Below, piece by piece: positions 13,790 through 52,054 of a DNA stretch of 64,000 nucleotides; within the stretch, counting starts at the first letter, position 1, and the number at the start of each line of letters is the position of its first letter. The notes under the pieces were generated by a model. It did not search any database and was not told the origin of the DNA. It worked only from the letters and a program-made list of their open reading frames with translations. The stretch comes from Rhizophagus irregularis (Eukaryota). The translations under genes and the position numbers were made by a program. Location of the stretch: contig NC_089435.1 in the NCBI RefSeq assembly GCF_026210795.1, forward strand, positions 1,364,001 through 1,428,000, in the 5' to 3' direction.

Positions 13790-14331
13790 CATTCAATGGC
13801 CGTCCGGACACGTGATCAATGATCTGCATATACACTGTATTACGACTATTACGTAGACTTCAACCATTGTAACACCTAAGCCCATGATAAATCATGTTTG
13901 CCACCTTAGGTATTAACAAAATTACTCTTTATTAATAATATAAATAAATACAATAATATTCTTGGTTTAATAATATCACATGATAAATAGAATAATTATA
14001 TTAAAATATATTTTCTTCCATTCGTAACTCTAGAATTGTAACTTATATTTTTGGGAAGTTATATCATTACCCCTATTTATAGTTGTTTATGTTTCACCAA
14101 ATTCATAATTTAAGTCATGGACTTTTAACTTTGACATTTCCATGAGATTATCTTTATAAATTTTGAGATCCATGAATTTTTAATCCTTAATTATTTCCAT
14201 CTATAATGATCATCATTACCCCCTTAATTATGATTCATAATAAATAGTACCCTAACGTTATGATCTACGAATTGGTCACCTGATATTTCAAATCACTTGA
14301 TTTTAATGATCTACTAGTTTATTGTCATTGC

Positions 14332-16836
14332 GGACAAAAACTCTTTCCCCTTTCCATTTTTTCACATAGAAATCCGCAGTTAAATACTGTTTTTTTTACT
14401 TACCCTTTTTTACGTTTGTTAACGCTCGAGAAGAAAGAGGACCACTGGGTGGCCTCTTATGGAAAGGTTCTTCTCCTTATTACCCGACCTTTGAAAGCAG
14501 TTTTTATGATAAAATATTTTTTTTATCTCACACCCATATACATATTGAAAAATATGGCTTCTTTTTTTCCTAAACATATTTCCTTGGGAAAATTTTCTTT
14601 CGATGTCTCATTCCACAAATTTCACGTGACTAGACCCAAACGGGCTGGATGTAACAAGATTTATGAAATCAGGAGATCAAAAAGTTTCTTTTTTGAGCTA
14701 GTCAATCCCTCAACAAACACCAATGATATTCATCTTAAAATACACACAAATGATTATCACATGAAATCGACCCCTATTAGCTACTCTTCCACCTGTAGCT
14801 TTCCTAATCTGAAATACCAGATTAGTAAGATGTTACAACATTTTTTTTCCCATCAAAAAGTCATCCCCCGATCTATTCAAAAGAAATATTTTAATCTTAT
14901 TCGTTCCAAATTACTTGATAGATATTTTCTTATCAAATCACGTGCTGACACAGTCACACAAAGAAATTCCCGCACAAAAACTTTCTTTAATTTTTCTTAT
15001 AAACGTTATCGTTTTTACTTTGGTATTTTCACACCATGTAACTTCTCCATTACTCACAATTTTGGAAGTGAACACACACAGTTGTGTAGTGTCCCCTCTC
15101 CCTTCATTATGTCTCATAATAGACGAGCCTGCGTTTCTCATCATAAAAATTTAGACATTTTTCATAATGTCAAGAAACACACCCCGTTATTGACCCATAA
15201 TGACACTATTAACCACAAAGAAGCTCACGCATTGCGCACTTATTTCAATTGGAAACATGGCACGAAAAAACACGTTTACTCAAATCGCTTAGGCATTTCG
15301 TACGATGTCTCGTACTTAGCGAACATATATAACCATTTCAACACGCAGAAAAAACACCTTATGTACCGTAAACGGTTAGATAATTTCCGTTCACACCATT
15401 CCGACAATAGTAAAAGGAGTAACAAACAAAAATCCCGCTTTCAGCGGGCATGTAGATCGGTTTTCTACAATCGTGGTAATAACAAAAAGTCACAGAGACG
15501 TGTGGATAGTCTTGAAGAAAAACTTCAGCGTGCTAGACAACACCGTTTTCTATTTTTACCTTCACAGCATATTAACAAACCTATACAACATGTGAATTAC
15601 CATAACCCGTTCCGCCGACCCGCTCCACGTTATCCAAGGGACGATTCAATTAGTACGACAAGTACTAGCTCGCCTGCCACCAATTCACAACCCGTTCCCG
15701 TCGAAGATGAGAACATTTGGCACGACAAGCTGGGTATTTGGATTCCTAACAGTCTCCTTCCTTACGTAACTGACGAACCTGTTTATATTTCTAAAAGACA
15801 GGCCAAACTCAAAGGTCAACATTTTACGCCAGGCTGTGCGTATTGGTTAGATGGTATTAAAAAGCGTAAAGAAGCTCATGAATTAGCTTTACGTCAACAA
15901 AAAGATCAAGAAGCACATGATAATGCTCGCCTCACTCTTGAAAAAGAACTTTCCGCCAGAGCTCAACTCTGGGGTACCTCTATCAACCGTATAGAATATC
16001 GTGAAGATATGACGAAAGACCTCACCAGTTTCCAGGATCATTATCACAAGAAAATCACGCCTCTGATTGAGCGTCGTGCTGTTCTAGAGAACAGGCTTAA
16101 ACAGGGAAAAAACATTTTCAAAACTAACAAACAATTACTCCAGTTAGAACAGGAGCTTGGTCGTTTTAATATCGACTATTTCTCAGTCATGAACATTGAT
16201 GACTACCATTATCGTTATAAAGGACACACATCCGATGATGCGAAACAACTTGAAATCAGACCACATAAACGTCCTCCTGTCTCGACTATAATTGCAGACA
16301 GGCACACCACCCACAACAAGAAATTGAGACTAGATATTCTCTCTTCAGCAGACTTTAAAGTCTCCGCCTCACTTTAACAATTTTTAGATCACCTATCAGC
16401 TTATCTTTTATTTTTAGTGGCACGCTGATAGTCATAGTTTACGTTATACCTAGCCACTTTTTTTTATTTTTTTTGACTAGTATTTTATTACATCTTTTTT
16501 TTTGGGTAACCCCACGTACACCTTTTTAACAACGTACAACAATAAGAATAGTGTGAACCATTCCACCTCTTACAGTATTAACAGGTGGCGGTCTTTTCGA
16601 CCGAAAGAAAAATATGGGTCTATGTTTAGATTGCCTTTTCTTTGGTCCATTGGGATGTGATGTCATGTTAGGGACTCCTCCGGGTTCGTTAAAGGTACCA
16701 GAGTGGCGCTGTCCTCGGGCGGTTTGATTATAGCTTAGTATTAGATAGCGTTCGACTTTTGTTTTATCTTTTGTTCTTGTCTATCTTTCTGTAATCTTGT
16801 TCACGTGGTTTTTAAAAATAAAAATAAAAATAAAAA
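14332..16836 (+). mobile_element. Non-LTR-type retroposon lacking reverse transcriptase, with a single ORF, (AAAAT)n tail and 11-bp TSD
   Basis: TSD ATTGTCATTGC at 14321-14331 and 16837-16847; tail AAAAATAAAAATAAAAATAAAAA; cleanly interrupts a solo LTR; visibly more GC-rich than the flanks. Confidence 0.9.
14554..16377 (+). CDS. Intronless, basic (K/R/H-rich) ~607-aa protein of unknown function with a C-terminal coiled-coil-like region; sole ORF of the retroposon (ORF open from 14416)
   Basis: Uninterrupted 653-codon ORF; likely start MASFF at 14554; homologous degenerate copy at 7726-8473; no RT, endonuclease or CCHC motif seen. Confidence 0.8.
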   Translation: MASFFPKHISLGKFSFDVSFHKFHVTRPKRAGCNKIYEIRRSKSFFFELVNPSTNTNDIHLKIHTNDYHMKSTPISYSSTCSFPNLKYQISKMLQHFFSHQKVIPRSIQKKYFNLIRSKLLDRYFLIKSRADTVTQRNSRTKTFFNFSYKRYRFYFGIFTPCNFSITHNFGSEHTQLCSVPSPFIMSHNRRACVSHHKNLDIFHNVKKHTPLLTHNDTINHKEAHALRTYFNWKHGTKKHVYSNRLGISYDVSYLANIYNHFNTQKKHLMYRKRLDNFRSHHSDNSKRSNKQKSRFQRACRSVFYNRGNNKKSQRRVDSLEEKLQRARQHRFLFLPSQHINKPIQHVNYHNPFRRPAPRYPRDDSISTTSTSSPATNSQPVPVEDENIWHDKLGIWIPNSLLPYVTDEPVYISKRQAKLKGQHFTPGCAYWLDGIKKRKEAHELALRQQKDQEAHDNARLTLEKELSARAQLWGTSINRIEYREDMTKDLTSFQDHYHKKITPLIERRAVLENRLKQGKNIFKTNKQLLQLEQELGRFNIDYFSVMNIDDYHYRYKGHTSDDAKQLEIRPHKRPPVSTIIADRHTTHNKKLRLDILSSADFKVSASL

Positions 16837-34565: not shown

Positions 34566-35664
34566 AAGTAATGGAAATGAAAAGAAGTTATTGAGAGACA
34601 AAAAAAATGATGGGAATTAAATAGGAGAGAAAATAAAATAACGGAAAATGAAGATGTAATAGAAAATAATGGGAGACAAATAATGAGAAGTAGTATAAAG
34701 TAAAAATGATGAGAGACAAAAATAAAAAAGTGATCATGACGAAACAAAGTAAAAAATAAACCATAAAGTAAACAAAAAATGAAGTTAGTAAGAAATGAAA
34801 TATAAGATAAAAACGAAATAAAAAAAAATAAAAAAAATAAAAAAAATAAAAAAAATACCTTTATTAATTGTAGAACTGAAAGAACTAAAATATCTGAAAA
34901 AAAATAAAATAAATTAGTGAAAAACGAAATATGAAACAGAAACAAAATAAAAAATAAAAAAATGAGAAATGTAAAGTGAAAAACAACTGAACCTTACTGG
35001 AAGAACTAAAGGACCTAAAAATGATGAAATAGAATTAAATATGTAAATTATATAAATTATATAAATTTATTAGTCTATCTAACCTTACCATATTGTAAAT
35101 ATTTATTATCAAAATACTAAGAAGTTTTATCCCCGGCGCAGCGCGACGGGTTACACCTAGTTATCATTATAAAATAAAGTACTTAATCATTATATTGTGT
35201 AAAATAATGGAATGTTTGGGGATTTGTCAATTGTAATTTGTAAATTGGCAAGATACTATATATAGTAATTGAACGAAACTATTTTGTTACAGATTTTACA
35301 AAAAAAAAAAAAATTAAAATTATTTATTTAATTTATTTCATTACCTTTAATATTTTCAATTGCTTGTTTATTCATTTAAATAAAAGTAATGATTTCAGAT
35401 TCCTTTAAAGTAGAGAACATTGATATCAAAGGAATTAAATTACCATTTACAATACAAAGTACATCTTTTGTAAAAAAAATATCAAGTAGAGTTGAGCAAA
35501 TTGATGATAGTTTTAATAATTTTTAACTTCAGAAAATGAAAGAAAATGATCTTTTTTAATATTATTATGAATGGATTCATCAATATCCTAATTCCACTCA
35601 TCTAAATTTTTGATGACCGCGATGAAACGAGTCTTTATAATTCCATAAATAAACCGATAAACTA

Positions 35665-36770
35665 GATTATCTTTAGTTGCTGGTAGTGAACTTGGTCTCC
35701 AAGAATTAACCACTTATTTACAATCCTTTTTGATTGAAACTAAGGCAAATTGGATGGAAAAAAATTTTGATTTGATATATAAGACAAGTTTTGAGAACAA
35801 TTCTTTATTGGAACTTCAAGAATTTTGTAATAATTTAATAACCAAAGAGCCAAACAAGATATTTAAATCTCTAAATTTTTCCTTAATTTCAGAAAAACTT
35901 TTGGTTTCACTTATTCAAAGTGATAATCTTCAAATGAATGAAATTCAAGTATGGAAAGATGTGCTTAGATAGGGACTTGCTCAAAATCAAAAACTTCCTT
36001 CCGATCCTACGAATTTTTCAAAAGAAGATTTTAATGCTTTGAAAAATAGTTTACAACATTGCGTTCCACATATTAGATTCTATAATTTAACTTCTGAAGA
36101 ATTTGCAGATGAAGTGTTGCCTTATAAAAAAATTATATCAAAAGAATTATATGAAGATTTATTAAAATATTTCTTGAAACCCAGTATCCAATCAAGTAAA
36201 ACATCAAAACCTCGTATTACTACTGAAGAAATTAATATTGATTCCATTGATTTCAAAATTATTACAATTCAACATGCTGAATTAATCTCAAAATGGATCG
36301 ATAGAACTGAAATTACAGATGAGATAAAAAATACGTACAAATTCAAATTATTACTTCGTGGATCTCGTGATGGATTTACATATAAAAAATTTCATGAAAT
36401 TTGTGATAATCAATCTCGTACTGTAACAATTATTAAGGTGAAGGTCAGTAAGGAAATTCTTGGTGGATATAATCCAATTGAATGGAAGTCTGATGATTCT
36501 TATGGCACTACTAAGGACAGTTTTATATTCTCGTTTAAGAGATGTAATGATATTAAAAATTATATTTTAAGTCGTATAATAAATGAAAAAGTCGCTACAC
36601 TTAACTCCTTTGATCGTGGACCATCATTTGGTATCAGTGACCTTGTTTTAGATGGAGTTTTTGGTAAATGTGGTAATTTTGCTTACGAAAAACAAATCAG
36701 TGGAACTACTGATTTATTTTCTGATTTATTTTCTGTGGAAGAATATGAAGTATTTCAAATTACAAGATAA
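35665..36770 (+). pseudogene. 5'-truncated BACK-TLDc paralog with a premature stop (TAG at 35970)
   Basis: Aligns to 38888/48462 from LVAGSELGLQEL onward; TGG>TAG at VLR*GL; BTB exon absent. Confidence 0.88.
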
Positions 36771-38288
36771 ATCTCATTTACAGTTGTCGATTTTCGTTAT
36801 TTTAAGGCATTTTTATTTTATTTATTTATTTTTTTAACATAACTTAAGTAAACGATATCACATGGAACTTAGTTTATGTAATGTGGACTATTATATACGA
36901 TTTATCTGTTCTTCTAAATAAAACATTATCCATAAAATATTAATAAAAAGCCATAGACGATCTTTTTTAAACCATGGCATAATTTAAGATCTCTTTTTAT
37001 GATCAGTGATAACAAGAAAAACTACTAATTTTTCCCCAAGTTTTTATAAACACAAAATTTAAATACGTTATGACAGAGTACAATTTAATATTAAGCTTAT
37101 ACTAGGTCTATGAATCTTATCAGTATATACTATAGAACTTTTATTCTTAGCGCTTATAAATTAGTACGGATATAAAAATTTATTACATTTTTTGTATTTA
37201 TTCTTTTTTTATATTGAATTACGAACTTTTTGAAATAAAACTAATACCTGAGTACTATGTGTGATGATGTCATGATGGATGGTTGGGGTTCAGATACTAG
37301 CATTTGAGTAGAAATTATAAAATTTTTAAAGAAATCTAAATAACTTATCTTGTACTTATTACTTAGTATAAAAAGTCAATAATTTCAATCGAATCTGGAA
37401 TTTATCATGTACAAGTTGTTGATACAAAAATTGATTTTTGTAATCATTTTATTGATTACATTCTCAATAGTTAAATATTATTAACGTTTCACATTGTAAA
37501 AGAATCATTAATTGTTCCGATCCTAAATCTGATAAATCCATTGAAGTCGGATATCCATATCCGATTTTTAAGGCGGGTGAATCCAAAAAATAGTTTACAA
37601 CATTGTATTTCATTTTATAACTTTTGAATAATTCCCAGATATAACTTGTAAAAAAATTATCAAAAGTTTGGTGGTGCGAGACTTAATTTTTGTTCTATTT
37701 TTAATAAGAAACATTATTTAACGTTTCTTGTGTTTTTTTTTTTGTAGATTTCGGTTTATTATTTCCTTAATATTGTGCATGATTTCATCAAAATCCCTAA
37801 TTCCACTCGTTTAATTCAAAAAATTTTTTAACATCTGCTAGAACGCCAATATTGGTAATTTTTTTTTTAATATATAATCTACAAATTATGAATTAATCGA
37901 CAAAATATTTTTTTTTCTTTTAGAAAAAAAAAGGTTGTGATTATCAAACTTATTCTCAAAGTTCATAGGACGAAATAAATGATTGTAAAATCATAGAACA
38001 AATATTATGTAGGGTATGCGTATGATATTCTTGAGAAATAATTATATATTCGAATCTCAAATTAAGCTATATTTTTTTTACATCTCATTTAAGTTTATAT
38101 TCAGTATTTTGAATGGTAATACAGCATCATATACATCTATCAGCAATTAGACGTTAACACGCTAATAAAACATTTTGATAAGTTACCTTTGAAGAACTTT
38201 TGATCTATTCTCATGTCAAATTTTCTAGAATTCAACTTGCAAAATAGGAATTGAATAAATTAAATATTAAATAGTTATTGGATGAGGG

Positions 38289-38434
38289 AGGACCCCGAAA
38301 TATACATAAAAAGGTTAGGTTCAAGTTTGAATTCTAACCAAAATTAACATAATTCCGGCACTGAAAAAATGCGTACAGCTAATAGTAAATTTTTTGGCCA
38401 CCACCTTACCTCTGAATATATATTTCGGGGTCTT
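38289..38434. mobile_element. Small MITE with 8-bp TSD, inside a palindromic insertion upstream of BTB copy 2
   Basis: TIR A(G/A)GACCCCGAAATATA; TSD GATGAGGG at 38281-38288 and 38435-38442; 38270-38605 is absent from the paralogous upstream region at ~48200. Confidence 0.7.
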
Positions 38435-38887
38435 GATGAGGGAAAAGAGATATCGGTCTTCGGCTGATATCCTCTATCCAATAACTGAGGATTAGTTCGG
38501 TCATTAGGAATACTGCGGTGATCAATAGGAATTAATTCTACTAATAACGATTTCAATATTGGATGTTATAAAAATATCGGCCATTAAAATCCTAATCGAC
38601 TGAATAATAATATTTTTTATGGATGATAAAACTTTGGCAAAAAATATTTATTTGAAATTTTTTATCTTAATGGAAAGAATAAAATTATATTGAGATACTC
38701 GACATATTTTTGATAAAATTCAAAATCTGCAATGATGTTCAGATTATGATATTTCCTTGAGTAACACAAACTATCCTGTACGTTGTTTCAGATCAACAAG
38801 TTGCAGCAGCAATTATATAAGGCTAACAATTCAAAAAAATTGCTAATCCTTATCCTTTTCAATTTCTTTTTTGAATTTTATTAAATC

Positions 38888-40393
38888 ATGAATAATAATA
38901 ATTTTTTAACGAAATTATCACAAAATTTACTTGATATTTTAAATGATGAAGAATATTATGATGTTACTATTGAAGTTGGTGGAGACCCTTATATAAAAAT
39001 ATTTCGTGCTCACATGGTTATCTTACATTATCGTTCTAATTATTTAAGAAGAATTTTGTCAACCAATAAAAAGAAACATGATGGAACTTTGGTACATATA
39101 AAATTACCAAATATTTTACCTGAAATTTTTCAAATAATATTAAGGTAAGAATTAAGAAAAAATTGAATTTTAATTACAAAAATGATTCTATATAATAAAG
39201 TATTTTTTTTTATTTTTTTAAAAAAAATCTACACTTTTTATTTTAGATATATTTATGGTGGAAAAATTTCTTTAGAGGAATATGATATTTCGGATATTAT
39301 TAAAATCTTAGTTGCTGGAAGTGAACTTGGTCTCCAAGAATTAATCACTTATTTACAATCCTTTTTGGTTGAAAATAAGGCAAATTGGATGGAACAAAAT
39401 TTTGATTTGATATATAAAACAAGTTTTGAGAACGATTCTTTCTTGGAACTTCAAAAATTTTGTACTGATTTAACGTCGAAAGAACCAGTTAAGATATTTA
39501 AATCTCTAAATTTTTCTTCAATTTCGGAAAAACTTTTGGTTTCACTTATTCAAAGTGATAATCTTCAAATGGATGAAATTCAAATATGGGAAGATGTACT
39601 TAGATGGGGACTTGTTCAAAATCCAGAACTTCCTTCTGATCCTACAAACTTTTCAAAGGAAGATTTTAATGCTTTGAAAAATAGTTTACAACATTGCGTT
39701 CCACATATTAGATTCTATAATTTAACTTTTAAAGAATTTTCAGACAAAGTGTTACCCTATAAAAAAATTTTACCAAAAGAGTTATATAAAGATTTATTAA
39801 AATATTCTTTGGATCCCAATAACCAATCAATTAAAACATCAAAACCTCGTATTACTACTAAAGAAATTAATATTGATTCCAAAATCATTACAATTCAACA
39901 TTCCGAATTAATCTCAAAATGGATCGATAGATTAGAAAATTCGGATGAGATAAAAGATACTTACAACTTCAAATTGTTACTTCGTGGAACTCGTGATGGA
40001 TTTGCAACTAAAAAATTTCATGAAATCTGTGATAATCAATCTCGCACTGTTACAATAATTAAAGTGAAACATAGTGAAGAAATTCTTGGTGGATATAATC
40101 CAATTGAATGGAAATCTGATGGTTCTTATGCCACTACTAAAGATAGTTTTATATTCTCTTTTAAGAATAGGGACGACTTGCAAAATTATATTTTAAGTCG
40201 CGTGGAAAATGAAGGACATGCTACATATAATAATTATGGCTTTGGTCCATCATTTGGTATCGATCTTGTTCTTTATGGATACGGTGGTAAATGCTGTAAG
40301 GTGGCTTACGAAAAAAAAATTAGAGAATCTACTAGTAAACTTCCTGGTTTATTTTCTGTGGAAGAATATGAAATATTTCAAATTATAGAATAA
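38888..40393 (+). CDS. BTB/POZ-BACK-TLDc protein, 467 aa; exons 38888..39144 and 39247..40393
   Basis: YYDVTIEVG..FRAHMVIL..RS.YL (BTB); intron 39145..39246; TLDc motifs FKLLLRGTRDGF, ILGGYNP, GPSFG, VEEYEIFQI. Confidence 0.93.
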
Positions 40394-41888
40394 ATATATT
40401 AGCAGTTGTCGATTTTGGTTATTTTAAAGTATTTTATTTTATTTTTTATTTTTTTAAATGCACCTTAAGATCAGTAATATCACACGGAATCTAGTTTGTA
40501 TAACGGAAACTATTGTATATGATTCTAACTTTTAATAGACTTTTTATCTACTCATTTAAGTAAATATTATCTGTAAAAATTATCAATAAAAAGTCACGGA
40601 CGATCTTTGGAACCGTTGTTTAATTTAAGATCCCTTTTTATTATCAGTGATAGGAAGGTTATTAATTTTTTTCCAAGTTTATAAATACAAAATTTCAAAT
40701 ACACTATGGCGAAGTATAATTATAATGACTTGTAAAAAAAAAAATTCTTATGGAAAAAAAGTTGTAATGATTAAATTAATTTTTTAAGCTTATACTAGAC
40801 CTATGAATCTTATCAGTATATACTGTAGGACATTTATTGATATCCATTACCTTAGTGCTTATAAATTAGTACAGATATAAAAATTACTGCATTTTGTAAT
40901 TATTCTTCTCTTTATATTGAATTACAAACTTTTGAAATAAAACCATTATAATTAGTACCATTACTGCGTGTGACGATGGATTGTGAATAATATCCAGGTT
41001 CAGGGTATTATCCAGAAATAGAAACAATAACAATTTAAGGAAATCTAAAATAACTTATCCCGTGATTTTAAATATAATAAATGTAATAATTTCAATCGAA
41101 TCTGAAATTTATCATGTGCAAGTTACCGATAATTTTTAGACCATTTTATTGATTACGTTTCCAATGGCATTATACTTCGTAAAAGAAATATTAAGTGTTG
41201 TAACACCTGAGCCCATAGAGAATTATGTTTGCCACCTCAGGTATTAACAAAATGACTCTTTATTAATAATATAAATAAATACAATAATATGCTTGGTTTA
41301 ATAACATTAAATGCTAAAATAAATAATTCAAAACAAAATTCGTCCGATTTTCTCTCTTTTCCAAAAGTTGATCTTCACGCCCTTTTATGTTTGTTTTTGT
41401 GTAACTAAATTCGTAATTTCGATTCATGGATTTAAATTATTAAAGTATTTCCATTGTTTTAAAGTATTTCCATTATCTTAATTTTGTATCCATTTGATCA
41501 TCATAAACTCCTGAATTATGATTTATAATATTAACGTAGATATCAACAAATTAATCACTTGACACCTCAGATCACTTGATTTCATTCAATTTAGTATCTT
41601 TCGGATCTTCATTTATCCCTAAATCTCGTGACTAATAGTTTAAGGTCATCACGGACCAATTACCTTGATCCATGTGATTATTAGTTTAACGACTTCTCGG
41701 TCCAATTATCCTTGATTCTCATGACTAATAGTTTAACGACTTTTCGGTCCAATCAAAATAAAAATAAAAATAAGTTAAAATTTTATACACTAAGACTAAA
41801 TGTAATACTGCGCCTCACAATTAATAAATTTACTAGATATACTACGGCATTACAACTATCCCCCACATAAAAATTTAATGCCCTCATT

Positions 41889-41959
41889 AAATTTATTCTA
41901 AGAATCGAACTCGTGTCTCGAAGTGGTAGGTGCGAATTATACCACTAAATCAAGCATGC
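41889..41959 (-). pseudogene. Degenerate tRNA-Gly-like sequence inside the LTR element, just upstream of the PPT
   Basis: GCATGCT TG ATTTAGTGGTATAAT TCGCAC CTACCAC TTCGA GACACGAG TTCGATT CTTAG: A-box, ACC/GCC-like anticodon loop and B-box/T-loop present; 3' acceptor strand lost. Confidence 0.7.
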
Positions 41960-42135
41960 ATTGTCACTTGACTCAGCTGCGTTTTAAATATTCCTTTTTG
42001 CTGCGTCTACATCTGCGGTTTATCATGTGTTTGTTAAATCTACGGTTTTCCTGTACCGGATTTCACTTCGGTCTTTCTTAGGAAATTTTCATTAGTTTTT
42101 CCTATTTTCGAAAATTATTTTTATGTCATGTGATT

Positions 42136-45100
42136 TTATTTCACATGATTATAAATTATCTTTATTTTTCTAAGTCCATTGATATTATCCTGATAATCCT
42201 GACTATCATAATCATATTGGTCATATTGGTCATTATAATTATCATATTCCACTACATTGAATCCTCGATTATTGTTTTGGTGGTTTGGTGGTCTGTTATA
42301 GTTATTTGGTCTTCCATTATAGTTATTTGATCTTCTATTATAATTTTGATTATTTGGTCTTCCATAGTTTCTTTGACCATTATTTACCCTACATTCATTT
42401 GCATAATGTCCTGATTGTTTACAATTATAACATGCTCGAGGTGGTGGTCCTTGTCTATTATTATTGTTTGGTGGTCTCTTTTGCCCTCCAAGTTGATTTA
42501 CTAGTTTTACCTCTAATTTTTTAAACATGTCGGCAAGGTCATCCTCATAATTTTTCTCCAATGGTTTTTCAAATATATTCTTTGGCTTGTCATCTTGTAT
42601 ATCGATTCCTTTTCTTTGGGTACTAACTGATATACCACGTGTCTTTCTTATTAATTCATTAGTAGCTTCCTCCTCTCTTCTTGCTGTATTCACTGCATCA
42701 TTTAAATTTGCTGGGTTTTGTCTTCTGACTTGATATCCCAATGTTGGTGTTAATCCTTCGATATAATTATCCACTTGTAATTCATCGTCTAATGCATGGC
42801 CTCTGGTAGCTATCCTTAATATTTGTCTAAACCTTATCGTATATGCCTCAACATTTTCATTTACTCCTTGTGTTATTTTCCTTAATTCTAACATTTTCCT
42901 TTTTCTAACATCTTCCCTGGTAAATCTTTGTTTAATCCTATGTTTTAAATCATTATCATTATCGTTATCTTGCCAATTTACCAAATGACCATTGTTTGCT
43001 TCCTTCTTTTCATTATACCATTGTGCTGCTGCACCTTTTAAACAGGTAGCTGCCATTGCTGCTTGTCTAGCTCCATTTGCTCCTGCTGCTTTTCCTATAG
43101 CAGTAAATGCTGTTTCAAATTGTCTTACCCAATCGTTTACGTCTTCTTCTTCCTTTCCATAAAATTGTGGCATACTAATTATTCCTCCAGCTACATTTCC
43201 TGCATCCTCAATTGCGTTTGCTAATGGGTTGGCTGCGACTAATCCAGCCCAATTACCTCCTATATCATGTCCTGTTGCTGCTAGTAAAGCCGCTCTAAAA
43301 TCTTCCCTTACTTCAGCTCTTGTTGCTCCCATAATTATTGGTACTATTGGTGGGATTGGTGGTATCGGTGGTGTTAAAGGTGTTTCAAATAAATTTTCTA
43401 TATTATAATCAGATATTTCACTTTTATCCTCAGAATTTGATTCTGAACTTTCACTTGAGTCAAAACCAGGTCTATTTATAATGTTTTCTTCATAAGGTTC
43501 TTCAAAATTTTCATTGCTATTGGTATCATTTGGATTTAAAATTTCTCCATCTTTTCCAGATCCATCTGATTCTTTTTCAGATTCATTTCCACTACTTTTA
43601 CTATCCTCAATTCTAGCTTGTTGTTTTAGAAATTTATCCAATATCCGTTTTAAATTTTTCTCCAAATCATTTTTATTTCCTTGGAATATTTCAATAAATT
43701 CTTGATCCAATATTTCTCCATCAGTATATCCCATACTGATTAACCTTAATAACTCTCCATCAGTTATTTCTATTTTATTATCATCACATATTTGTTTTAA
43801 TCTTTTGACCCTGATATCAATTTCATTTTCGTCATTCTCACAATCCCTACACTTGGTTTTTCCTTCGTCAAATTTATTGTTCATCCATCTTATTCCACAT
43901 TCATTACAAAATGTGGTATTTTCATTTATCCATTCATATAATTTTATCCTTAATTCTTTGTCATTCGTATCCATTTCCTGGAAATATTTTTCCATAAATT
44001 CTGTTGTTAATATCATACTATTGCTTATCCTGAATTTTCTTATTCTCTCTATTTCTGACACATTTAATTCGTATCCTAGTTTTTCTAAGTCATCCTTTAA
44101 TTCTAATAATTCTTTTTGTTCACAATTTTTACATTGTCCAATGTCTGCTATCATATCAGGTAACTTTCTATTCTTACAATTTCCACATATTAATGTTTCT
44201 TTTGTTAACCATTCATTTATTTCATCTTTTAATTTTTCATCACTTAGTCTCATTAATTCGAAAAATGTACCTAAAAAGTCCTCTGTTAATATCAATTCTA
44301 TCCTTATCCTTAGGTCCCACATTCTTTGTATATCTTTGTCGGTGAACCTTCCACCCATTTCTTCAATTTTTCTTTTTAATGATTCCACTGTCCATTCGAC
44401 ATCATCCTCTATTTTTATTTCATAATGTATACTACCATCACTGTCCTCTAATTCATAACTTTCAGGACTATCACTTTCTGGGTCCTCAGGTTCCCTTGTA
44501 AATTGTTTGGTGTCAATAAATCTTTGTCTTACTTTCTGTATCAATCTCTTCCATGCATCCTTTCCTTCTTGAGTGAATGCCTCACATCTATTCTGGTGTT
44601 CTATCTGGAGTATTAATTCAACTACCTTTTCACTCCTCAACAGATCTTCTGTTTCTTCATATAATAAATCCCTGAATAACTTTATTGCTAACTTCTTAAC
44701 ATGTATTGCTTTCATTTCATTTTCCAATATCGTGTTATAACAATCCCAAAATTTTTGAAATCTATTTTCAACATCCCAATCTTCTAAAATGTATCCATGT
44801 TTCATTATTTCTGGACATCCTATCAATCGATCAAATACTTCATTTTCCAAGTTTCCTTCAATACAATCCCTTACAATTACTACAATTATTATTCTCAATC
44901 CTTTTTCCTTCATTTTTGGTTGTTGTCTGTACCTTATTGATTCAATTATTCTATCTACTATATTCCTACATTTTCCTTTATGTATTGTATCCTCCCTTTC
45001 TCTATTGTCCATACTTAATAAATTCAATAATTCTTTATGTGTTACATTATTGTACATTAGTATTGTATCCTCGAATTTAAATAAAGCATCCCAAAATTTC

Positions 45101-45237
45101 TTGAATGCTGCTGATACTTCTCTTTCTATTGGATTACATATTTCACATGCTAAACATTCCTCTGGTTCTATCACTCCTAGGTCATGTTCTTGTTTATGGT
45201 TTATATATTCAGCGTTCCAAACATGGTACCATTCCAT
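42136..45237 (-). CDS. 1033-aa Gag-like protein: ~630-aa acidic N-terminal extension, retrotransposon capsid and CCHC zinc knuckle
   Basis: MPQFYGKEEEDVNDWVRQFE, LKGAAAQWY, QGVNENVEAYTIRF (major-homology-like region), CYNCKQSGHYANEC; no protease, RT or integrase downstream. Confidence 0.9.
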   Translation of the reverse strand: MEWYHVWNAEYINHKQEHDLGVIEPEECLACEICNPIEREVSAAFKKFWDALFKFEDTILMYNNVTHKELLNLLSMDNREREDTIHKGKCRNIVDRIIESIRYRQQPKMKEKGLRIIIVVIVRDCIEGNLENEVFDRLIGCPEIMKHGYILEDWDVENRFQKFWDCYNTILENEMKAIHVKKLAIKLFRDLLYEETEDLLRSEKVVELILQIEHQNRCEAFTQEGKDAWKRLIQKVRQRFIDTKQFTREPEDPESDSPESYELEDSDGSIHYEIKIEDDVEWTVESLKRKIEEMGGRFTDKDIQRMWDLRIRIELILTEDFLGTFFELMRLSDEKLKDEINEWLTKETLICGNCKNRKLPDMIADIGQCKNCEQKELLELKDDLEKLGYELNVSEIERIRKFRISNSMILTTEFMEKYFQEMDTNDKELRIKLYEWINENTTFCNECGIRWMNNKFDEGKTKCRDCENDENEIDIRVKRLKQICDDNKIEITDGELLRLISMGYTDGEILDQEFIEIFQGNKNDLEKNLKRILDKFLKQQARIEDSKSSGNESEKESDGSGKDGEILNPNDTNSNENFEEPYEENIINRPGFDSSESSESNSEDKSEISDYNIENLFETPLTPPIPPIPPIVPIIMGATRAEVREDFRAALLAATGHDIGGNWAGLVAANPLANAIEDAGNVAGGIISMPQFYGKEEEDVNDWVRQFETAFTAIGKAAGANGARQAAMAATCLKGAAAQWYNEKKEANNGHLVNWQDNDNDNDLKHRIKQRFTREDVRKRKMLELRKITQGVNENVEAYTIRFRQILRIATRGHALDDELQVDNYIEGLTPTLGYQVRRQNPANLNDAVNTARREEEATNELIRKTRGISVSTQRKGIDIQDDKPKNIFEKPLEKNYEDDLADMFKKLEVKLVNQLGGQKRPPNNNNRQGPPPRACYNCKQSGHYANECRVNNGQRNYGRPNNQNYNRRSNNYNGRPNNYNRPPNHQNNNRGFNVVEYDNYNDQYDQYDYDSQDYQDNINGLRKIKIIYNHVK

Positions 45238-45757: not shown

Positions 45758-45906
45758 CCTCACACAGAATTGTTTTTGAAAGTTCACACAGAACTATTCT
45801 CAATTGATCACACAGAATACCTCAATTGAGTTCACACAGAAAAAGCTCACACAGAACTATTCTCAATTGATCACACAGAAAACCTCAATTGAGTTCACAC
45901 AGAATT
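45758..45906 (-). repeat. Seven TCACACAGAA motifs in the 5' UTR of the LTR element
   Basis: Directly visible, with CTCAATTGAG palindromic linkers. Confidence 0.8.
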
Positions 45907-46476: not shown

Positions 46477-46494
46477 TTCTCAGAGCATGCACCA
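46477..46494 (-). promoter_or_regulatory. Primer binding site, 18 nt, complementary to a tRNA 3' end ...TTCTCAGAGCATGCACCA
   Basis: TGGTGCATGCTCTGAGAA begins 2 nt after the 5' LTR. Confidence 0.88.
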
Positions 46495-48461
46495 CTTGTA
46501 ACACCTGAGCCCATAGAGAATTATGTTTGCCACCTCAGGTATTAACAAAATGACTCTTTATTAATAATATAAATAAATACAATAATATGCTTGGTTTAAT
46601 AACATTAAATGCTAAAATAAATAATTCAAAACAAAATTCGTCCGATTTTCTCTCTTTTCCAAAAGTTGATCTTCACGCCCTTTTATGTTTGTTTTTGTGT
46701 AACTAAATTCGTAATTTCGATTCATGGATTTAAATTATTAAAGTATTTCCATTGTTTTAAAGTATTTCCATTATCTTAATTTTGTATCCATTTGATCATC
46801 ATAAACTCCTGAATTATGATTTATAATATTAACGTAGATATCAACAAATTAATCACTTGACACCTCAGATCACTTGATTTCATTCAATTTAGTATCTTTC
46901 GGATCTTCATTTATCCCTAAATCTCGTGACTAATAGTTTAAGGTCATCACGGACCAATTACCTTGATCCATGTGATTATTAGTTTAACGACTTCTCGGTC
47001 CAATTATCCTTGATTCTCATGACTAATAGTTTAACGACTTTTCGGTCCAATCAAAATAAAAATAAAAATAAGTTAAAATTTTATACACTAAGACTAAATG
47101 TAATACTGCGCCTCACAATTAATAAATTTACTAGATATACTACGGCATTACAGTGTTCCGATCCCAAATCCGATAACGTATCCAATATTTTTAGGCGGAT
47201 AGGATCTGATGAACAGTTTACAACATTGTATTCCATTTATTAAATTCTATAATTTAATTTATAATTTAATTTTGAAAATTTTTCAAAGTGTTATCTTGTA
47301 AAAACTTTACCAAATGTATTATAAAAACCTATTAAAATATTTTTTGAATCTCGATAACAACGATTCAAATTAAATGCTCGTATGACTACTAAAAAATTAA
47401 TTTTAATACCGAAATCATCACATCTTAACAATGCTCAAAATGGATCAATAGATTAGGAATTACAGATGAGGCAGGAAATGAATACAATTCAAATTGTGAT
47501 TTTGTGGATCTCATACGTCTAAAAAATTTTATGAAATCTGTGATAGTTAATTAGAAGACTTTTTTTTATATTGGTATTTTATCTCATATCATTTAATTTC
47601 AATTTTATAACCAAATAATCTGGAGTAAATTCTGGATTAATTATGCCCAATAAATGATCATTGAGCTCCTCTTAATCTTTGGAATCATTAATTATTGACT
47701 AACAACTCAAAATTTCGACTCTGATTATTATATACAGGAAGTACAGTACATTTTTGAATAATTAATAAAAATTTGGTTTACCTGGGTAGTGTATATGCCA
47801 TATTATTTTCTTGTTTATACTGTGTATTTATTACGTTCTTTTATGTCCTCTTATCATTCATGCTAATGGTTTCGGATTATAAAATTCTTTTTTCTATTAA
47901 AGCAGTTATAATTCAATCAAATAATTTCGAGGTCATAGTTACTTGTTCATATACGAAATAAATGATTTGTAAAATCATTAGAACAAGACAAGTATCATGT
48001 AAAGTATACGTATGATATTTTTTTATTTTTTTTAAAAAAAAATCTTTCATTATTTTTCTCGAGAAATATGCTGTACGTCCGAGTCTCATTTACATCTCAA
48101 TTAGTAATTTTAAAGAACTTTTGTCAATTTTTGTCTATTCTCGTCAAATTTTCTAGAATTCAACTTGCAAAATAGGAATTGTATAAGGTCTTATAAATTA
48201 AATATTATTTACTATAGATGATAAAACTTTGACAAAAAATATTTATTTGAAATTTTTTATCTTAACGGAAAAGAATGATTATCGCTAATTTCAAGATCTG
48301 CAATGATGTCATTATTTTTCATATAAACACAAACTATCAAGCATCCGGTGCTACATGTACGTTGTTCCAGATCAACAAGCTGCAGCGGTAATTATAAATA
48401 AGGCTTAATCCTTTTCATTTTTTTTTCATTTTTTTTTTAAATTTATTAAATTTATTAAATC

Positions 48462-49966
48462 ATGGACGATAATAAATTTTTAACGAAATTATCACAAAAT
48501 TTACTTGATGTTTTAAATGATGAAGAATATTATGATGTTACTATTGAAGTTGGTAATGATCCTTACATAAAGATATTCCGTGCTCATATGGTTATCTTAC
48601 ACTATCGTTCTACTTATTTAAGAAGAATTTTATCAATCAATAAAAAGAAAAATGATGGAACTTTGGTACATATAAAATTACCAAATATTTTACCTGAAAT
48701 TTTTCAAATAATATTAAGGTAAGAATTAAGAAAATAATTAAATTTAAATTACCAAAATGATAATAAGATAAAATATTTTTTTTAAAAAAAATTTTAAAAA
48801 TTTACACTTTTTATTTTAGATATATTTATGGTGGAAAAATTTCTTTAGAGGAATATGATACTTCAGATATAATTAAGATTTTGGTTGCTGGAAGTGAACT
48901 TGGTCTCCAAGAATTAATCACTTATTTACAATCCTTTTTGATTGAAACTAAGGCAAATTGGATGGAATTTAATTTTAATTTGATATACAAAACAAGTTTT
49001 GAGAACGATTCTTTCTTAGAACTTCAAGAATTTTGTAATAATTTAATAACAAAAAAGCCAAACAAGATATTTAAATCTCTAAATTTTTCTTTGATTCCAG
49101 AAAAACTTTTGGTTTTACTTATTCAAAGTGATAATCTTCAAATGGACGAAATTCAAGTATGGGAAGAAGTGCTTAAATGGGGACTTGCTCAAAATCCAGA
49201 TCTTCCTTCTGATCCTACAGATTTTTCAAAAGAAGATTTTAATACTTTGAAAAATAGTTTACAACATTGCGTTCCACATATTAGATTCTATAATTTAACT
49301 TCTGAAGAATTTTCAGATGAAGTGTTACCTTATAAAAAAGTTTTACCAAAAGAATTATATAAAGATTTATTAAAATATTTTTTGGATCCCAATAACCAAT
49401 CAATTAAAACATCAAAACCTCGTATTACCACTAAAGAAATTAATATTGATTCCAAAATCATTACAATTCAACATTCCGAATTAATCTCAAAATGGATCGA
49501 TAGATTAGAAAATTCGGATGAGATAAAAGATACTTACAACTTCAAATTGTTACTTCGTGGAACTCGTGATGGATTTGCAACTAAAAAATTTCATGAAATC
49601 TGTGATAATCAACCTCGCACTGTGACAATAATTAAAGTGAAAGATAGTAAGGAAATTCTCGGTGGATATAATCCAATTAAATGGAAATCGGATAAATCTT
49701 CTGGCATTACTAAAGATAGTTTTATATTTTCTTTTAAGAATAGGGATAACTTTGAAAATTATATTTTAAGTCGCGTAGAAAATGAAAATTATGCTACATT
49801 TAATGATCATGATTTTGGTCCATCATTTGGTATCGATCTTATTCTTTATGGAAACAGTGGTAAATGTAGTAAACGGGCTTACGAGAGTCAGATCAGAGGA
49901 GCTAGTAGTATATTTTCTAGTTCATTTTTTGTGGAAGAATACGAAGTATTTCAAATTATAAAATAA
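48462..49966 (+). CDS. BTB/POZ-BACK-TLDc protein, 467 aa; exons 48462..48718 and 48820..49966
   Basis: Paralog of 38888 with the same exon lengths (257 + 1147 nt); intron 48719..48819. Confidence 0.93.
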
Positions 49967-52054
49967 ATATCATTTAAAGTTGTCAATTTTAGTTTTTTTA
50001 AAGTATTTATTTTATTTATTAAACGCAACTTAAAATTGGTAATATCATACGGAACTTTGTTTATGTTAGTACGGGGCTAATGTGTGTGAGCTTTTTTATC
50101 TATTTTTCTTAATAAACATTTTCCGCAAAATTATCAATAAAAAAGTCACGTATGGCCTTTAGGAAACTTTATAATTTAAGATCTCTTTACTTGACCAGCG
50201 ATAGTAAATAAAGTTACTAATTTTTTCCCAAGTTTTATAACACAAAGTTTTAAAGACGCTATGACAGAGTACAATTATAACATCTTGTAAAAAAAAAATT
50301 CTCATGAAATGGTTTCCAAAAATTGAAATGTTTAAATTGGTTTTTAAGTTCATACCAGGCCTATGATTCCGTAGGACTTTTACTGTTGTTCATCATTAAG
50401 TATGTCTTGACGCTTATAAATTAGTACAGATAGAAAAAATTTCAATTGTTTTTCTTCTATTTTATATTGAGTTATAAACTTTTTGAAGTAAAATCACTAA
50501 AATTATCGTCATTAATGCCTTTAGCATTCAGTTATCGACGTAAACTCGTTCTATTTCTACATTAGAATACGAAATATATTTGCACAGTGGTGCGTTATTT
50601 GTTTTTTTAAAAAAAGTTTATTCCTATTCTAGATATTCCATACAATACTTAATAAATGAACAAATTATAAATAAAATATGATATAATAAATAAAATATAG
50701 TCAAAGGTTATTAAAGTCATAGCTTTTTCATTAGGATCGTTTATGTTGAGAAAAAAATATTGTTTTATGAGCTAAATTTTGAAAGAAATTATATAAAGAA
50801 AATTACTGAACTCGTAGTATTACCCAAAAGCTTAAAAGAATATGATAGCTTAACAATATCTGAACTATATATAGTAAAAGCATAAAGGTGAAAAAGTAAA
50901 AATTGATTGATAGATGTTCAGAAAATTATAAAAAATTGTTGCTTTCATTGTATTTGTGGGTATAATTTTCGAATTTATAATAATTACTTATTATAATCAT
51001 CAAAGCCTTTCAACAGAGAAAATTGCTGTAGTATCTAATTATATTAATATAATAGATAATGATTTATACACCTAAATATTCAGTTTTCTATATTCATTGG
51101 CTTACCAATTTTATCGGAGAAAAATGCTGATAAAATTGCTTTGCTGATAAAATTGCTTCTTACAATCTTGAAATTTTTGCCAAAATTAATCTTTTTCTAT
51201 ATAAAAACTGATGATGTAAGAAAAAATAAACAAGTGACTATTTAATGGTTTACAACATGTAATAAAAAATTGCTTTAATAAAATGCTATACTCTGTATCT
51301 CAATGGCTATAAATAATAAGTAGCTGTAAATTTATTCATAAATAGGTAATAAAATACTTTATTAATGTTGTAGGTGGAAACGGAATCTATGTGGATTCCG
51401 AATCCACATATGTGGATACGGGATGGGATGCTGGCCAGAATTAAAGCATAGTGGATTTCGTAATGCTGGCCAAGATTATTTTAAATTCTAATATTATTAC
51501 CATTGTTTTATAAAATTATTAAAACACTAAAAGATTATTATACCTAACTTATAAATCTATAAATTAAAATGATATCAAATTTTTTTTTTTGTATGTTATA
51601 GAAATAGATATTTATTTAAAACTTAATTTTATCTTAATCACTAGTTGTTGAAAAATTTAGAATTTATATATAATTTACTAATGAATGATATTTTAAGATT
51701 ATAACAAAAAAGAATTATAAGCTAAAAATAATTTTTTTTTTATAAATATGTTAAACAGTAAGTATTTTATACGGCGTATGAAAATGCCTTTTATTTAAAT
51801 CACATGAATGACAAATTTTTTCATTACAATGTATTTTTAAAGGAATTGAATTTCTCAACGCAGATCAGCGCATCGAAAAAATTATGGTCCGAAAAATATA
51901 TATATTTTTTTTTGTTGTTTCTATTTTTTGGTTAAAGCTTTCTTTTCAGTAACTTTAATGAAATATTGAAATATTGGAAAAGTTTTCGTCTAAAAAATAT
52001 TTGTCTAGAAAAATAATAATTTTTTTGGTAAAATAAATTTCTAAAATAAAACAA

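Follow-up and report, generated by a model that had tools for sequence, protein, structure and literature searches.

A partial copy of the primer tRNA upstream of the polypurine tract of a Ty3/gypsy-type element in Rhizophagus irregularis

The LTR element and its family

The window, i.e. the whole 64,000-nucleotide stretch of Rhizophagus irregularis DNA analyzed here, contains an LTR element of 5954 bp on its minus strand (47152-41199), which sits in a tandem array of plus-strand BACK/TLDc-domain genes (35600-40400 and 48400-50000; three copies with 86-92% identity). Its LTRs are identical 656-bp direct repeats with TG...CA ends (5' LTR, 46497-47152; 3' LTR, 41199-41854; both on the minus strand), and a 4-bp target duplication, ACAC, borders the element on both sides (41198-41195 and 47156-47153), as in Ty3/gypsy elements. 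The same is true of the placement of a primer-binding site (PBS) after the 5' LTR and of a polypurine tract (PPT) before the 3' LTR. The 5' LTR displays a TATA-like motif (46687), a single AATAAA (46562) and an 11-bp terminal (U5) hairpin, and each LTR includes three repeats of 46-47 bp (41610-41753 and 46908-47051). The Gag frame (42136-45237, minus strand; 1033 residues) matches the Retrotrans_gag and zf-CCHC families above the cut-off and Ty3_capsid below it, while its first ~560 residues (45237-43560, minus strand) are acidic, with several CxxC pairs, and match no Pfam family above the cut-off. Between the 5' LTR and this frame the leader carries two tandem duplications: a degenerate one of ~60 nt (46485-46360, minus strand), which repeats the distal PBS and a stem flanked by TGATCA and is a candidate packaging or dimerization signal, and an almost perfect 63-bp pair (45779-45904).

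Searches with the Gag frame recovered 46 hits, the 13 best of which are Gag-Pol polyproteins from R. irregularis that are 97-99% identical to it over residues 640-960. The homologs P0003 and P0017 have the domain order gag, protease, reverse transcriptase (RT) and RNase H. The match of the Gag-Pol homologs to the window ends at 42184, and contigs of the family in all four runs that we counted (X2, X13, X14 and X9, from four studies; X1 was left out of the counts as it may be the source of the window) diverge from the window at 42183, all into one and the same 30-letter sequence. In X2 a single 483-nt contig extends from the LTR through the tRNA-like segment described below and across 42183 into the missing part. 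Judging from this 42184/42183 junction, the copy in the window is an internally deleted member of a larger family, the missing part being presumably pol. We file the element as Ty3/gypsy-type by domain content rather than by an RT tree. The identical LTRs, along with the 97-99% identity of the gag region among the 13 best hits, indicate that both the element and its family are young. No integrase family is listed for any of the 47 homologous proteins, and 13 of the 47 share one C-terminus, which comes shortly past RNase H. The Gag-Pol proteins P0001-P0017 and P0047 end right after RNase H despite the TG...CA ends and 4-bp duplication, and an integrase may sit in a separate frame or come from another element.

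A related solo LTR, 78-88% identical to those of the element and with an ATGG duplication, is found elsewhere in the window (17043-13868, minus strand). It is split by an insertion of ~2.5 kb with a 697-residue open frame on the plus strand (14284-16377) that has no Pfam match. Both LTR types have the 11-bp hairpin at their 3' end (46544-46499 and 13915-13870, minus strand) with one compensatory change from G-C to A-U, and in a predicted fold the 3' arm of this hairpin can alternatively pair with the distal PBS.

One host tRNA-Gly at three places in the element

The PBS (46477-46494, minus strand), located 2 nt after the LTR, is that of a tRNA-Gly(GCC), with 17 of its 18 positions complementary. 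To identify the host tRNA we used a sequence pattern that is unique in the window and had no occurrence in 100 shuffles. It matched one metagenome locus (L001), an intact 71-nt tRNA-Gly(GCC) gene of the host, and the same search of metagenome contigs returned this tRNA only and no copy of the element. An earlier note on this DNA had derived the PBS and a tRNA-like segment close to the 3' LTR from one host tRNA, and had made the existence of such a tRNA its test; L001 matches both. The PBS, the tRNA-like segment, which starts at 41959, and the loss of its 3' acceptor strand are likewise borne out. Of the T arm that the note predicted for the primer, the match to the PBS stands, but the CTCAG that it took from a wobble position does not: the host T stem reads CTCGG in L001 and in the loose ends of host genes in all four runs (five contigs), so that the PBS has one G-U pair at its 13th base. 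These five contigs, from four studies, align with the element only over 41923-41959 (one of them to 41956) and then continue into an intact T arm and acceptor strand as in L001. We considered an unseen tRNA allele as the source of the A shared by the PBS and the copy at tRNA position 62 and dropped the idea, as no such allele was observed and one predicted fold has this PBS base paired with the LTR end as well; an isoacceptor whose 5' half differs may be an alternative source of this A.

The tRNA-like segment (41897-41959, minus strand) is a truncated copy of this tRNA, 63 nt long, which corresponds to nt 1-64 of the 71-nt gene and differs from L001 at 10 positions. L001 aligns with 41959-41901 at 86.7% identity over 60 nt (E 3e-15), its only strong match in the window; the sense match is confined to the internal region, and the LTRs have a 12-nt antisense match. 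The paired acceptor, anticodon and T stems of a functional tRNA gene are not retained: the anticodon is ACC, neither the anticodon stem nor the T stem is intact, and six of the final seven nucleotides of the 71-nt tRNA differ. Neither ARAGORN at default settings nor Rfam called a tRNA in the element, and lowering the ARAGORN thresholds gave 36 noise calls in the window.

Counted along the tRNA, the copy has one difference from L001 in nt 1-25 (1/25), seven in nt 26-47 (7/22), none in nt 48-60 (0/13) and two in nt 61-64 (2/4), i.e. 9/26 in nt 26-47 plus 61-64 versus 1/38 elsewhere (p=0.0008, for segments chosen post hoc). This clustering bears on one account of the copy, namely that it is a neutral relic: the primer tRNA would have been captured once, have become fixed in the ancestor of these families and now be decaying, with only the hairpin that follows it, the U-rich run and the PPT being of any importance. 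While the clustering argues against such a passive decay, the changes are mostly G>A and C>T, a bias that would suit the CG methylation of R. irregularis transposons (PMC8647823), and conservation of the promoter boxes relative to the rest, with the boxes fixed in advance, is not exceptional (p=0.14). Further, tRNA copies beside the PBS are known from a gypsy element of Culex, where the tRNA dimer at the PBS end was read as an insertion (PMC3286476).

The internal promoter boxes, which the earlier note thought had both survived, have fared differently. The B box and T loop (41902-41912, minus strand) are identical to those of the host tRNA, with no differences in 13 nt, whereas the A box has undergone G10>A, which takes it off the TRG start of an A box. 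These boxes could make the copy a DNA element that recruits TFIIIC or Pol III, acting as a silencing barrier by the 3' LTR or as the source of a ~90-nt transcript that ends at a run of five Ts (41873-41869), 25-30 nt past the copy. The retention of the B box and T loop in spite of the broken T stem speaks for such a role, as does the precedent of the Helenus elements, in which boxes are kept without a cloverleaf (PMC10886601); set against it are the altered A box, which the diverged family type described below seems to share, and the failure of that type, with only three Ts, and of a minority variant at 41869 to keep the T run. Moreover, T-rich runs ahead of the PPT are already known as a feature of plus-strand priming (10.1101/2022.12.06.519325), and a promoter so placed would not transcribe the element. 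On this mixed evidence the Pol III promoter or insulator suggested earlier is weakly supported and appears unlikely, and the p value given above for the boxes adds little to it. The T run itself is present where the note had seen it, ahead of the PPT, though the note had missed that it overlaps a hairpin.

The third place lies in the LTRs themselves. A site in the 5' LTR (46587-46605, minus strand), repeated identically in the 3' LTR (41289-41307, minus strand), is complementary to nt 3-21 of the host tRNA and would form with it a helix of 19 bp, 12 of them consecutive Watson-Crick pairs; either length was reached in one of 1000 dinucleotide shuffles and in none of 162 genomic tiles. Going by motifs only, namely its position between the TATA-like motif and the AATAAA, the site probably falls in R. 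In the related solo LTR a helix of 16 bp has been kept, but as the whole LTR end there is 87.5% identical, this supports the site only weakly. A segment outside the PBS that is complementary to the 5' part and D arm of the primer is a trait that the element shares with the Ty1 CYC and Ty3 split-PBS signals.

Along the element RNA, the embedded copy is predicted to pair with the LTR site more stably than any other stretch (-13.8 versus -10.8 kcal/mol for the next). The host tRNA is nevertheless predicted to pair with the site better than the copy does (-21.3 versus -14.6 kcal/mol), because the site matches the G10 of the tRNA and the copy has A10. When the two ends of the element were co-folded the pairing of LTR site and copy was not selected; with the A10 mismatch, and a local hairpin of the copy that is equally stable (-14.5 kcal/mol), the long-range pairing is not favored energetically. 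The contact between copy and PBS entertained in the earlier note is weak, with 8 bp and -11.7 kcal/mol including a short extra helix, compared to a predicted -36.1 kcal/mol for the primer on the PBS. In these predicted folds the stronger partners of the copy are the LTR site and its own 5' flank, neither of which featured in that note.

Hairpins beside the copy and variation across the family

The local hairpin (hairpin A) arises from pairing of the 5' flank (41965-41980, minus strand) with nt 4-19 of the copy, with 13 contiguous base pairs plus two more and a predicted energy of -14.5 kcal/mol. This hairpin, which was found after the fact, exceeds chance only modestly: 79 of 3000 flank shuffles (2.6%) and 36 of 4128 genomic 31-mers (0.9%) fold as well. 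All four known changes in its stem (41965, 41974, 41954 and G10>A) preserve the pairing (chance p=0.24). Directly after the copy lies hairpin B (41871-41894, minus strand), a perfect 10-bp stem with a 4-nt loop (z -2.85; 5 of 200 shuffles), of which the 3' arm overlaps the T run to give a U-box-like arrangement. Beyond it is a short PPT, GGGGGA, assigned by its position, with 4 nt separating it from the 3' LTR (41855-41864, minus strand). Three CGCAG motifs were noted upstream of the copy (42020-41975, minus strand), and similar ones are found in the loose ends of both diverged variants of the family.

Such structures raise the alternative that the sequence matters only locally, with hairpin A, as a refolded capture, and hairpin B positioning or protecting the PPT for plus-strand priming, or binding Gag, and the LTR site binding nothing but the real primer. 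The core pairs of hairpin A indeed have probabilities of 0.85-1.0 in the local fold, and A10 strengthens this hairpin while weakening the pairing with the LTR site, which itself matches the host G10. Yet hairpin A could equally be a snap-back by-product of the capture, and a purely local structure gives no reason why the tRNA strand, rather than any stem, should have stayed host-like. We therefore regard this alternative as improbable, the least probable of those weighed here.

The copy is not peculiar to the window. It is attached to the undeleted form of the element in the family contigs, and the copy, hairpin and PPT occur together in contigs of great depth (463 in X2, 373 in X13, 47 in X14 and 221 in X9, as against 7-34 for host tRNA contigs), depth being a hint of copy number only. 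Its presence throughout the family in contigs from four studies bears out the earlier expectation that other members carry the segment, and argues against a one-off insertion. The GCATGCT start noted earlier is exact in the window copy, whereas in all four runs the family variant of greatest depth carries C6>T (41954). Another family variant, at 41884, falls in the loop of hairpin B. Because the family is young, with 97-99% identity in gag, the occurrence of the segment in many of its members says little about selection, and youth also suits a neutral relic.

Two further subfamilies were recognized. The second differs by 17-20 letters plus 20-21 gap letters from 41960 to about 42110 and rejoins the main path on both sides of this 150-nt bubble; as it is possibly a recombinant we did not count its identity over the tRNA copy as evidence of selection. 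The third, present in three of the four runs, is the only truly diverged type, and is known through 30-letter loose ends. It has six differences in 66 nt over 41899-41964, and in run X2 its contig of 607 nt reaches 80% identity or more over no more than 88 nt. Conservation of precisely this stretch is a further point against a neutral relic, as is the inverted complement directly upstream of the copy, and we hold that account to be rather unlikely. Over nt 4-31 the diverged type has only two listed differences (26 and 28), both outside the arm that pairs, and no variant is listed at the G10>A position, so that it seems to share this change. From a 30-letter loose end read by eye, its hairpin B has an 8-bp stem and the loop AGGT, compared to the 10-bp stem and AGGG of the window, with one compensatory change from A-U to G-C, one pair lost and three Ts rather than five at the hairpin end.

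We also considered insertion of a tRNA-derived SINE as the source of the copy, and rejected it: in all four runs the loose ends are either host tRNA genes or element variants that share the 5' flank, bearing in mind that contigs drop rare variants. No relatives were recovered among viral contigs with three patterns and two protein queries, the three viral-contig matches (L002-L004) having no similarity to the element, and none were found in prokaryote genomes.

Possible roles of the copy and comparison with known systems

The sequence establishes that the copy matches the host tRNA and occurs throughout the family, that the LTRs have the 19-bp site, and that a hairpin can be drawn on either side of the copy. 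To account for these features we favor, tentatively and with slightly less than even confidence, a model in which the copy would be a captured mimic of the primer, placed at the 3' end of the genome and working there as an RNA signal during reverse transcription. The primer would bind twice: its 3' 18 nt would sit on the PBS, and nt 3-21, once freed, on the LTR site, which is probably part of R. For the LTR site the embedded copy would offer the best alternative partner, and its pairing there would bring the PPT end beside the 5' R/PBS end; such joining of the ends could serve initiation or minus-strand transfer, with hairpin A keeping the copy closed until the Gag nucleocapsid (Gag-NC) refolds it.

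Several observations were counted in favor of the primer-mimic model: (i) a single tRNA is represented at three places in a 6-kb element, as PBS, copy and LTR site, and the copy ranks first among the predicted partners of the LTR site along the element; (ii) nt 1-25 of the copy have stayed close to the host while the stems of the cloverleaf are broken; (iii) the two listed differences of the diverged type in nt 4-31 lie outside the pairing arm and the changes in hairpin A keep its pairing; (iv) variation in hairpin B consists of the loop and a compensatory change; and (v) the Ty1 CYC5/CYC3 and Ty3 end segments provide a precedent. The perfect B box is left unexplained by it.

As for its origin, the copy is probably the product of a template switch of the reverse transcriptase onto the tethered primer, of which the stretch left free by the PBS would have been copied. 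In four of the five host contigs the homology begins at tRNA +1, and it ends near the first of the 12 perfectly paired nucleotides of the PBS; this start and the loss of the PBS-bound end fit such a switch, so that the capture during reverse transcription envisaged earlier is plausible. It is weakened by the resemblance of L001 to 11 nt of the 5' flank of the copy as well. The modified bases of a mature tRNA hinder copying, and because of these and of the resemblance in the flank the source may alternatively have been a tRNA gene or precursor.

A more specific form of the model, which we consider possible though doubtful, is that a gypsy-type lineage has made an end-joining signal out of its own primer: the sense copy would compete with the primer for the anti-tRNA site in R, the antisense flank would serve as a latch, and the resulting three-way RNA switch would couple primer loading to circularization of the genome. 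If true, the element would preserve in legible form the way in which CYC-type signals come about. As the family is young and its source tRNA a single one, both origin and function are open to compensatory mutation. Were the copy neutral, a new split primer site and a relic of capture would still remain. In the genomes of arbuscular mycorrhizal fungi, copies of this sort can be mistaken for tRNA pseudogenes or Pol III sites.

Searches of the open full-text literature, including two papers on R. irregularis transposons, yielded no sense copy of a primer tRNA upstream of a PPT, although one might be described in Repbase or in the supplements on Helenus. One system with a likeness in content is Helenus, or TRIMp3 (Kojima 2024, PMC10886601), likewise an LTR retrotransposon with a decayed tRNA sequence that has box A and B regions and no cloverleaf. 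Helenus elements are non-coding TRIMs with lengths of 311-1263 bp in which each of the two LTRs contains the tRNA sequence, and their author reports that this sequence is not complementary to the PBS. The present element has a single copy, internal and of the primer tRNA itself, and the family is a coding one; membership in Helenus was thus rejected, the sense match being internal rather than in the LTRs and the element, at 5954 bp with a 1033-residue frame, being no short TRIM.

The 19-bp LTR site is first reported here, but extra contacts between a primer and the ends of its RNA are already known from HIV-1, Ty3 and Ty1. In the U3-R region of HIV-1 a tRNA-Lys3-like sequence is reported, as cited in a review, to promote minus-strand transfer (Piekna-Przybylska 2010). 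The likeness lies in a sequence resembling the element's own primer tRNA near the 3' end; in HIV-1 it is described as complementary to the primer and lies in the LTR, whereas here the copy is sense and internal, and a separate 19-nt LTR site is complementary. Ty3 has primer-binding segments at both ends of its RNA (PMC4974528), and both Ty1 and Ty3 are described as binding the primer at two sites (PMC4974528, PMC11381356). With the split primer site of Ty3 the present element shares additional segments that are complementary to the primer, separate from the PBS and located at the distant RNA end, which in Ty3 have been proposed to let the tRNA bridge the ends. The Ty3 segment at the 5' side is 8 nt long and the primer tRNAiMet, compared to the 18-nt PBS and tRNA-Gly here, and the passages on Ty3 in PMC4974528 and PMC11381356 mention no sense tRNA copy.

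Ty1 provides a further parallel. Although complementary to the D stem of the primer, its CYC5 has CYC3, a segment at the RNA's 3' end, as its pairing partner (PMC4974528, PMC7969010), and this pairing is needed to start reverse transcription, as proven by compensatory mutations (PMC4974528). In Ty1, and by prediction here, a primer-complementary site at the 5' end has an alternative partner at the 3' end. In the R. irregularis element, which is gypsy-type, the proposed 3' partner is a recognizable 63-nt copy of the primer upstream of the PPT, and the complementary site, being in the LTR, is present twice. The Ty1 and Ty3 contacts are short motifs of unclear origin, whereas here one identified host tRNA is the common reference for a near-whole copy, the 19-bp LTR site and the PBS.
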